Source: a virus
Taxonomy: Duplodnaviria > Heunggongvirae > Uroviricota > Caudoviricetes
Virus record (IMG/VR): IMGVR_UViG_2534682295_000015
Coordinates: 1-10,636 of that record
DNA: 10,636 bases
Direction: 5' to 3' (one strand)
A program made the position numbers and the translations under genes. Of this stretch, positions 9,039 to 9,561 are shown piece by piece (the stretch's first letter is position 1; each line of letters begins with the position of its first letter). The notes below the pieces were generated by a model. That model was not told where the DNA came from. It saw only the letters and a list, made by a program, of their open reading frames with translations, and ran no database searches.

Positions 9039-9325
9039 CACCACACTTATCTGCCCTGACTCTCTTTTGCGGGCTTTTTATTACAGGAAAGACACCGGAC
9101 AGTGAAATGTTAAATGCCTCACAATTCAGGCAGTTGACTGTTGCCTGACATGCTGAGCGTTTGTTAAAAAAATCCTGCATGATGAATCCCCCTGAGCGGC
9201 GGGGCATAATGACAGATGTTTGGTTGCGTATTGTATAGGCAAGTTGCGGATTCTGTCTGGTCATTGCAGAATTCACCGGGAGGCACCCGGCATCATGCTG
9301 TATACAGAGATTAGGCATATATCCA

Positions 9326-9350
9326 GGCTTCTCATCGCAGGAGCCTTTTT
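9326..9350 (+). terminator. Candidate rho-independent terminator (+ strand)
   Basis: GGCTTCT (9326-9332) pairs with AGGAGCC (9339-9345) including one G-U pair; loop CATCGC; followed by TTTTT (9346-9350). Confidence 0.35.
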
Positions 9351-9356
9351 ACATGC

Positions 9357-9382
9357 AAAAAAAAGCCCGAGTGGGTTCGGGC
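9357..9382 (-). terminator. Candidate rho-independent terminator (minus strand)
   Basis: Hairpin GCCCGA (9365-9370) / TCGGGC (9377-9382) with 6-nt loop, flanked on the plus strand by an 8-nt A-run (9357-9364), which is the T-run for a minus-strand transcript. Confidence 0.35.
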
Positions 9383-9440
9383 AACAGCATGAGATACTTG
9401 CATTGTCATTTTTATCGTGTGGATTTTAACCAGGGTTTAT

Positions 9441-9470
9441 AAGGCTGCGCAACTGCGCGGCCTTTTTCGT
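9441..9470 (+). terminator. Candidate rho-independent terminator (+ strand)
   Basis: AAGGCTGCGC (9441-9450) / GCGCGGCCTT (9455-9464) form a 10-bp stem (one G-U pair) with AACT loop, followed by a T-rich tail. Confidence 0.4.
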
Positions 9471-9561
9471 TTTGCGGGCTGCGGTTCTCCTCTTTTGATT
9501 CTCCTTGTGGCCGGACCGTGGCCCGCAACTGTTGAGGAAAATCCCGGAAAGGGGAGGAATA

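Follow-up and report, generated by a model that had tools for sequence, protein, structure and literature searches.

What lies between the last tRNA gene and the esterase gene of a lambdoid late region that is built like that of a Shiga toxin-converting phage and carries no toxin genes? The question is raised by positions 9039-9561 of the window, i.e. of the whole 10,636-nt stretch of viral DNA analysed here (IMG/VR record IMGVR_UViG_2534682295_000015). A first-pass annotation, made from the letters and their open reading frames (ORFs), had described these positions as a gene-free, terminator-rich gap and read them as an empty or never-occupied toxin cargo site. The present analysis supports, with high confidence, a different reading: the gap is a small RNA (sRNA) module that, in lambdoid prophages of EHEC, directly follows the moron site of the late operon on its 3' side, here in the allele of prophage Sp9 and with an empty cargo slot. 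The sequence, the two sRNAs and the position of the moron site are already known from Tree et al. 2014 (PMC4104026) and were revisited in 2025-2026. The importance of the result as a discovery is small, and its use is that of a correction.

Layout of the late region

The window represents the region of late regulation in a lambdoid prophage of E. coli (Table 1). It is a mosaic, of which at most 71% is covered by any one complete E. coli genome. Between positions 6598 and 9720 it shares 93.6% identity with Sp9, a prophage of E. coli O157:H7 Sakai, while the part to the left of ~6600 differs from Sp9 and belongs to an unrelated mosaic. The methylase, ileZ, argO and esterase genes that flank the gap are the same as in Sp9, and the 523 nt of the gap itself agree at 100% identity with its argO3-ECs_1781 gap, which encodes EcOnc28 and EcOnc03. 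Thus, the expression data obtained for Sakai apply to the identical gap, and not necessarily to the present host, the window being mosaic.

Table 1. Features of the late region and of the gap, with window coordinates
Feature	Position	Strand	Basis
DUF1367 gene	5694-6293		Pfam
YbcO gene	6293-6583		Pfam
Q-like late antiterminator gene	6460-7134	+	Pfam DUF1133, E 3e-106; Phage_antitermQ, 32.6 bits (cut-off 26)
Putative tR'-like intrinsic terminator, ~80-100 nt past the Q stop	7213-7235	+	CCCGC-TTTTT-GCGGG stem, then T7
N6/N4 DNA methyltransferase gene	7707-8765	+	Pfam N6_N4_Mtase, E 2e-43
tRNA with CAU anticodon, ileZ type	8806-8881	+	ARAGORN (as Met); Rfam tRNA, 70.9 bits; ileZ3 tRNA-Ile in Sakai Sp9
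Decayed argN tRNA remnant, minus 12 nt of the anticodon arm	8883-8948	+	Alignment to VT2-Sakai, Stx2_14040 and phi296
tRNA-Arg(UCU), argO type	8962-9038	+	ARAGORN; Rfam, 71.4 bits; argO3 in Sp9
Left slot flank; homologue of the hairpin downstream of argO in Stx2 phages, degenerate here	9039-9081	+	9041-9081 aligns with VT2-Sakai 2122-2163
Empty moron/stx slot, 23-nt filler TACAGGAAAGACACCGGACAGTG	9082-9104	.	Replaces VT2-Sakai 2164-3486
Beginning of the conserved right flank; perhaps 5' portion of a long form of the plus-strand sRNA	9105-9147	+	Homology starting at 9105
STnc100-family sRNA gene; corresponds by position to EcOnc28 of Sp9	9148-9356	+	Rfam RF02076
Intrinsic terminator of the STnc100-family sRNA	9325-9351	+	Terminator scan; terminal helix of the Rfam model
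EcOnc03, AgvB/AsxR anti-sRNA family, including the terminator stem 9382-9365 and U-run	9358-9417	-	Exact match and Rfam
Putative sigma-70 promoter of EcOnc03	9423-9452	-	-10 TAAAAT 9428-9423, -35 TTGCGC 9452-9447, 18-nt spacer; sequence inspection
Third intrinsic terminator, ~90 nt upstream of nanS-p	9441-9474	+	10-bp stem with 7 GC pairs, and T-run
nanS-p-type sialate O-acetylesterase gene, 5' part, continuing past the window end	9562-10636	+	Pfam DUF1737, E 9e-16; SASA, E 9e-12

The order proposed by the first-pass annotation, namely a Q-like gene, tR', a tRNA cluster and a NanS-p-like esterase gene, is correct, although the N6/N4 methyltransferase gene and an ORF of 106 aa stand between Q and the tRNAs (no Pfam match was obtained for ORF 7236-7556). 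The homologue of the Q-like gene in Sp9, ECs_1778, carries the annotation of a phage antiterminator, and the real start of the gene probably lies downstream of position 6460. The hairpin and T-run that follow it are plausible as tR': the region 7150-7236 folds with -33.5 kcal/mol (z -4.0). A weak match to an IsrK-like Rfam model (7161-7234, E 0.34) was seen over the same region. The methyltransferase gene also precedes the tRNAs in Sp9 and in the Stx2a phage Stx2_14040. When PADLOC was run on the upstream methylase cassette, it recognised a C5 methyltransferase only.

The tRNA cluster consists of two intact genes and one further member that has decayed. This remnant, for which neither ARAGORN nor Rfam gave a call, aligns with the intact tRNA-Arg(UCG) gene (argN) of VT2-Sakai, Stx2_14040 and phi296 save for a 12-nt deletion (CTTCGAAGCTGG). 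In O157 genomes, the esterase gene at the other side of the gap is listed as a carbohydrate esterase of the SASA family. The window presents Q, the putative tR', ileZ-argN-argO (with argN decayed) and nanS-p in the order of Stx-converting phages and with flanks homologous to theirs; the interval from the tRNA cluster to the sRNA/nanS-p module lacks both stxA and stxB.

The toxin slot and its flanks

The gap measures 523 nt from the end of the tRNA-Arg(UCU) gene (9038) to the ATG of the esterase gene (9562), in agreement with the ~520 bp given earlier. It was aligned with the late regions of two Stx2a phages (VT2-Sakai and Stx2_14040), the Stx1 phage 7888 and the stx-negative phage phi296, and both of its flanks turned out to be homologous to stx-flanking DNA. 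On the left, homology with the Stx2a phages comprises the 3' end of the methylase gene, ileZ, the argN remnant, argO and the downstream hairpin, and ends at position 9081. The hairpin in question (~9053-9074) is weak in the window, with -6 kcal/mol and z -0.1, whereas its counterpart in VT2-Sakai forms a strong terminator (-14.8 kcal/mol, z -4.3). An extension of the left flank into the ribosome-binding region of stx2A was considered and rejected, the likeness (ATTAC..AGGAA..CACC) being too short and gapped. On the right, homology with both Stx1 and Stx2 phages begins at 9105, which corresponds to a point 31-40 nt past the stxB stop; the first 31 nt of this flank are identical at 27 positions in phage 7888 and at 22 in VT2-Sakai.

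The slot proper is therefore confined to the ~23 nt between the two flanks (9082-9104), and not, as had been proposed, to the whole ~520 bp. At this point VT2-Sakai holds 1323 bp, made up of 51 nt upstream of stx2A, stx2A and stx2B themselves and 31 nt after the stx2B stop. The remaining ~460 nt of the gap are a conserved sRNA module that is present in Stx phages as well, and since these phages carry the ~460 nt in addition to stxAB, the module is not the cargo site. The absence of stx stated by the first-pass annotation holds for the entire window: searches with the A and B subunits of Stx1 and Stx2 (tblastn) and with both cassettes (blastn-short) gave hits with E >= 0.68 throughout, i.e. no stx remnant in the slot and chance-level matches elsewhere in the window. 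This definition of the stx slot at the level of single bases may be used for typing stx-negative Stx-like prophages.

The position agrees with what is known of such prophages. Tree et al. 2014 (PMC4104026) describe the DNA that follows the Q-antiterminated promoter PR' as a region that tolerates the insertion of morons and contains sRNA genes in convergent orientation; EcOnc02/AsxR and EcOnc27 are located 3' of stx2B in Sp5, and a like convergent organisation of sRNAs 3' of the moron site is found in Sp3, 4, 5, 9, 10, 11, 15 and 17 (PMC4104026).

The convergent small RNA genes

The description of the gap as terminator-rich is borne out by three terminator-like hairpins, versus 0.7 +/- 1.0 when the interval is dinucleotide-shuffled. 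They are located at 9325-9346 (plus strand, -13.7 kcal/mol), 9382-9365 (minus strand, ~-14 kcal/mol) and 9441-9464 (plus strand, -19.5 kcal/mol). Two of the three are the terminators of the two sRNAs described below, because EcOnc03 is matched exactly and the target of the EcOnc27 probe is matched inside the STnc100 gene. The third, with a centroid energy of -18.3 kcal/mol over 9441-9474, overlaps the putative promoter of EcOnc03, and the alignments reveal that it is kept before nanS-p in Stx1, Stx2 and stx-negative phages.

The gap does contain ORFs of 40-116 aa, the longest of which, a 116-aa frame on the minus strand (8968-9318), crosses the tRNA-Arg gene in antisense, and some of these might be taken for genes of small proteins, for example the 116-aa ORF or one of 69 aa at 9220-9429 on the plus strand. 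Matches to PHROG families of unknown function (phrog_27294, E 1e-18; phrog_24488, E 2e-11; phrog_23494, E 5e-14) and the small hypothetical proteins annotated at this place in some phage records point in this direction. Nevertheless, the 116-aa ORF is antisense to the STnc100 gene as well as to the tRNA-Arg gene, the homologous regions differ by many indels whose lengths are not multiples of three, and no CDS is annotated by RefSeq/PGAP across the gap in the curated records of Sakai Sp9 or strain SS NE 1040-1. The PHROG families concerned are tiny, their simplest reading being that of over-called ORFs on conserved non-coding DNA. Protein-coding genes in the gap are thus scarcely credible, and the earlier statement that it holds no plausible ORF can be retained.

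The claim that the gap is gene-free must be abandoned, since it contains a full-length STnc100 sRNA gene recognised by Rfam and an exact copy of EcOnc03. The STnc100 (RF02076) match on the plus strand covers the model completely (1-206 of 206) and scores 175.2 bits, where the gathering score is 47 (E 4e-41); its terminator folds with -13.7 kcal/mol and z -3.1. The RNA is a homologue of EcOnc27/sRNA103, of a family related to PasD, and the target of the EcOnc27 Northern probe corresponds to 9295-9328, within the Rfam match, at 31 of 34 nt. The identification with EcOnc28 of Tree et al., the counterpart of EcOnc27, is made by position in the sequence. The context is that of the family, as the gene adjoins a sialate esterase gene and directly follows the stx/moron slot; an STnc100 gene is found at the equivalent position in all four comparators (VT2-Sakai, Stx2_14040, phage 7888 and phi296). 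The RNA immediately past stx2B has been equated with STnc100 and EcOnc27 (PMC12711010), STnc100 was likewise tied to the stretch directly downstream of stx2B in PMC12370729, and Zhu et al. 2026 located STnc100 matches in this sialate-esterase neighbourhood, as well as the PasD sRNAs, which are related.

The EcOnc27 RNA appears on Northern blots at ~235/247 nt, which exceeds the 206-nt Rfam model (Tree et al. 2014, PMC4104026). If these approximate sizes are counted back from the terminator in the window, the expected start falls within ~2-14 nt of the right flank start at 9105. The 5' end of the sRNA may coincide with the recombination boundary of the cargo slot, in which case the RNA could be a 3' UTR of an upstream moron, stx included.

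The second RNA is encoded on the minus strand, where positions 9361-9411 are exactly the EcOnc03 sequence published by Tree et al. 2014 (Fig. S4). It has the features of the anti-sRNA family EcOnc01-03, i.e. a length of 51-60 nt, a conserved 3' region of ~42 nt including the terminator GCCCGAACCCAYUCGGGC, and a variable 5' region of 14-18 nt. Its fold has z -2.2. The 3' end of EcOnc03 (~9358) faces that of the STnc100 RNA (9356), so that the two genes form a convergent pair, both downstream of the slot. The spacing of the putative EcOnc03 promoter suits an RNA of 56 nt beginning near 9416; the 5' end of the plus-strand RNA and the promoters of both sRNAs are inferred. Both RNAs were found in Sp9 by Hfq CRAC, EcOnc28 on the plus strand and EcOnc03 on the minus strand, the latter ranking third in abundance among the Hfq-bound sRNAs that had no annotation (Tree et al. 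2014, PMC4104026). EcOnc03 was detected on Northern blots at 56, 54 and 51 nt, had its 5' ends mapped and was destabilised in an hfq deletion strain (PMC4104026).

The first-pass reading of the entire ~520 bp as a functionless spacer, an empty toxin cargo site furnished with terminators only, can be judged on these grounds. It accounts for the three terminators, for the absence of stx and for the lack of a credible CDS, including in the RefSeq records. However, the two sRNA genes, identified by exact matches or strong matches to a family, cover ~270 of the 523 nt, both RNAs are bound by Hfq in Sakai, and Stx phages keep the same ~460 nt besides stxAB. Emptiness can thus be upheld for the slot, where the flanks are homologous and stx is missing, and not for the rest of the gap, whose two sRNA genes were detected as transcripts from identical sequence (PMC4104026); as an account of the whole gap, the functionless spacer is very unlikely. 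More generally, ORF-free and terminator-rich intergenic DNA beside a virulence cargo slot should be regarded as a candidate sRNA locus and not as empty space.

With regard to its name, the minus-strand RNA is a member of the wider anti-sRNA family and is neither AgvB nor AsxR. Rfam, applied to 9417-9358, gave 56.6 bits for AgvB, slightly over the gathering score of 56, and 46.8 bits for AsxR, for which it is 63. AgvB and AsxR are anti-sRNAs directed against GcvB and FnrS by means of their variable 5' ends (PMC4104026). AgvB (RF02702), the anti-GcvB RNA of Sp10 and Sp17, shares with EcOnc03 the conserved 3' part of ~42 nt, the terminator, the position in the prophage and the orientation, but bears at its 5' end the CACAACA mimic of the GcvB target. 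The 5' region of EcOnc03 (CGAUAAAAAUGACAAUGCAAG) is without CACAACA, and its identification with AgvB proper was rejected in view of the missing R1 target mimic and of a pairing with GcvB that is no better than that of shuffled sequences. A role of EcOnc03 as a GcvB sponge was rejected as well: the duplex reached -11.5 kcal/mol, a value attained by 51% of shuffled seeds, compared with -19.4 kcal/mol for AgvB, matched by 1.7% (the GcvB sequence used for pairing was 100% identical to that of E. coli genomes). Given this poor pairing, the Rfam name 'AgvB' should not be transferred. AsxR proper was also discarded, the score being below the gathering score and the seed differing from the AsxR 5' seed (CGAUUAUUAAAACGAG).

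In the literature searched, EcOnc03 is mentioned by a single paper, and no target is reported for it. As its seed is unlike those of AgvB and AsxR and does not fit GcvB, EcOnc03 may sponge a third core sRNA. That this is the case and that, at the same time, the 5' end of the plus-strand sRNA marks the slot boundary, with an origin from a 3' UTR as a possibility, is a doubtful combination.

From left to right, the locus reads as a decayed hairpin after argO, a 23-nt filler at the place of stxAB, two convergent sRNA genes, a plus-strand terminator and nanS-p, the sRNA pair being composed of an STnc100-family RNA of ~210-250 nt on the plus strand and the Hfq-dependent EcOnc03 of 51-56 nt on the minus strand, each with its own terminator. 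The following working model would account for the arrangement. In the lysogen, both sRNAs would be transcribed from their own putative promoters and bound by Hfq. By analogy with AgvB and AsxR, the variable 5' end of EcOnc03 would sequester or destabilise a core-genome sRNA, and the terminators would presumably shield nanS-p and the lysis genes from sRNA transcripts and read-through. Upon induction, as assumed from the biology of lambdoid phages, Q-modified polymerase starting at PR' would pass tR', the tRNAs, the slot and all terminators. A cargo placed in the slot would then be expressed alongside the late genes; in the window there is none.

Distribution and history of the empty junction

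The same design recurs in related phages. Stx2a phages (Sp5/VT2-Sakai, 933W type) share the order of tRNAs, slot, STnc100, convergent anti-sRNA, plus-strand terminator and nanS-p, with ~80% identity over 9119-9481. VT2-Sakai differs from the window by the 1323 bp with stx2AB in place of the 23-nt filler, by an intact argN and a strong hairpin after argO, and by an anti-sRNA that carries the AsxR 5' seed where the window has that of EcOnc03. In the Stx1 phage 7888, an RNA of the EcOnc03 type, as in the window, is located with STnc100 between stxB and nanS-p. The stx-negative phages phi296, phi315, phi367, TL-2011a and PPwrbA have the same arrangement of tRNAs, a similar gap of ~530 nt and nanS, and the same empty junction, which at the base level in phi296 is identical save for one mismatch over the filler and the sequence on either side; they differ from the window by an intact argN, another STnc100 allele and a minus-strand RNA without the AgvB/AsxR core. 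When the module as found in phi296 was compared with Rfam under a relaxed threshold, its minus-strand hairpin was assigned to no family.

A scan with a 126-nt query centred on the junction (at least 80% coverage) found the empty junction in 484 of 5426 complete E. coli genomes, with a median of 2 copies per genome and a maximum of 4, the carriers including O157:H7, O111:H8 and O145. The exact 39-nt junction pattern is also present in 55 IMG/VR viral contigs. In the scan across species, the only non-E. coli species representative with the junction was Escherichia sp. MOD1-EC7003, and the allele therefore looks confined to Escherichia. The 57 junction loci compared were heterogeneous downstream: 21 had the EcOnc03 seed, 5 had the AgvB seed, and ~25 with enough sequence represented a third allele without the AgvB/AsxR core. 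The ATG of nanS-p was always 471-497 nt from the junction.

It could be supposed that the junction is a scar, derived from a Stx phage that lost stxAB by deletion, and not an ancestral state. Both flanks are indeed of the Stx-phage type, including the ileZ-argN-argO cluster with its decayed argN, the hairpin found before stx2A is still recognisable in a decayed copy, and repeated loss of stx was considered by Zhu et al. 2026 for esterase-linked sRNAs without stx. On the other hand, there is no remnant of stx, and the sequence beside the slot is only 71-87% identical to that of Stx1 and Stx2 phages, so that any loss would be old and a recent deletion of stx is unlikely, as judged from this divergence. 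Moreover, one junction allele is common to the 484 genomes, often in several copies, to the 55 viral contigs and to viable stx-negative phages, and at least three different sRNA alleles are found downstream of it, which fits one old, recombining allele and not recurrent deletions. A derived junction appears unlikely, and the pattern is consistent with a single old empty-slot allele that has been reshuffled by recombination. The earlier wording 'empty or never-occupied' is accordingly kept in its first half, for the 23-nt slot, while the data fit ancestral emptiness and ancient loss alike. Cargo other than stx occurs in phage 813R8, where TciB, two hypothetical genes and IraM are located between the tRNA and a DUF1737 gene.

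A mosaic window and the modules at its sRNA and tRNA genes

The window (1-10636) is a mosaic: as a contiguous whole it is absent from 5426 complete E. coli genomes, the top match to it among these having 71% coverage and 95% identity. Yet many O157:H7 chromosomes match segment 8700-9700 at 99.9-100% identity, which illustrates the exchange of modules around the sRNA and tRNA block.

The sRNA module, which pairs an STnc100-family sRNA with a convergent AgvB/AsxR-type RNA, has a third allele in about 25 of the 57 loci bearing the empty junction. In this allele, seen in the stx-negative phage phi296 (L004 3665-3760) and the Stx2a phage Stx2_14040 (L061 2875-2960), the AgvB/AsxR-type RNA is substituted by an unrelated sequence that has a hairpin and T-run (GCCCGCGTCTCCCAGCGCGGGC TTTTTT) of its own on the minus strand. 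An Rfam search assigned this sequence to no family, even at E <= 1, and it may be an undescribed sRNA at the anti-sRNA position.

In Stx phages the cargo slot carries stxAB; its right edge was compared between window 9105-9118 and 3487-3501 of L002 (VT2-Sakai). EcOnc27 (the STnc100-type RNA 3' of stx2B) runs at 235-247 nt on Northern blots. Counting back by this length from the STnc100 terminator leads to within about 2-14 nt of the homology start of the empty, Stx1 and Stx2 alleles, and thus this edge may coincide with the sRNA 5' end.

The tRNA block includes a decayed argN, flanked by one intact tRNA gene on either side, that was called by neither ARAGORN nor Rfam. Compared with tRNA-Arg(UCG), its anticodon arm lacks 12 nt (CTTCGAAGCTGG) and additional substitutions are present. 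Likewise, only ileZ3 and argO3 are annotated as tRNAs in prophage Sp9 of the Sakai strain.

Features located in the window
Feature	Position	Strand	Remark
C5 cytosine DNA methyltransferase	1695-2846	+
PF20553 'putative O-methyltransferase'	2814-3806	-
HATPase_c_3 ATP-binding protein	3803-5194	-
Strong hairpin and T7 run	7213-7235	+	~80-100 nt 3' of Q-like gene
106-aa ORF	7236-7556		ATG directly 3' of the hairpin; phrog_331 (function unknown)
Decayed argN tRNA	8883-8948	+	by alignment with tRNA-Arg(UCG) of Stx2 and stx-negative phages

Hairpin downstream of the Q-like gene

The stretch of about 87 nt that contains this hairpin (7150-7236, +) has a folding z of -4.0, and Rfam matches it weakly to an IsrK-like RNA (19.8 bits, E 0.34). 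The short leader RNA from PR' to tR' in phages of this type is probably what this stretch encodes.

Methyltransferase cassette

The early/nin region carries a cassette of three genes (1695-5194), one on the plus strand facing two on the minus strand. PADLOC recognised only the C5 methyltransferase, as a Type II MTase and also as DruM/DrmMII-like, and gave no defence-system match for the PF20553 and HATPase_c_3 genes. The three genes may form a defence moron, either restriction-modification-like or of another kind.
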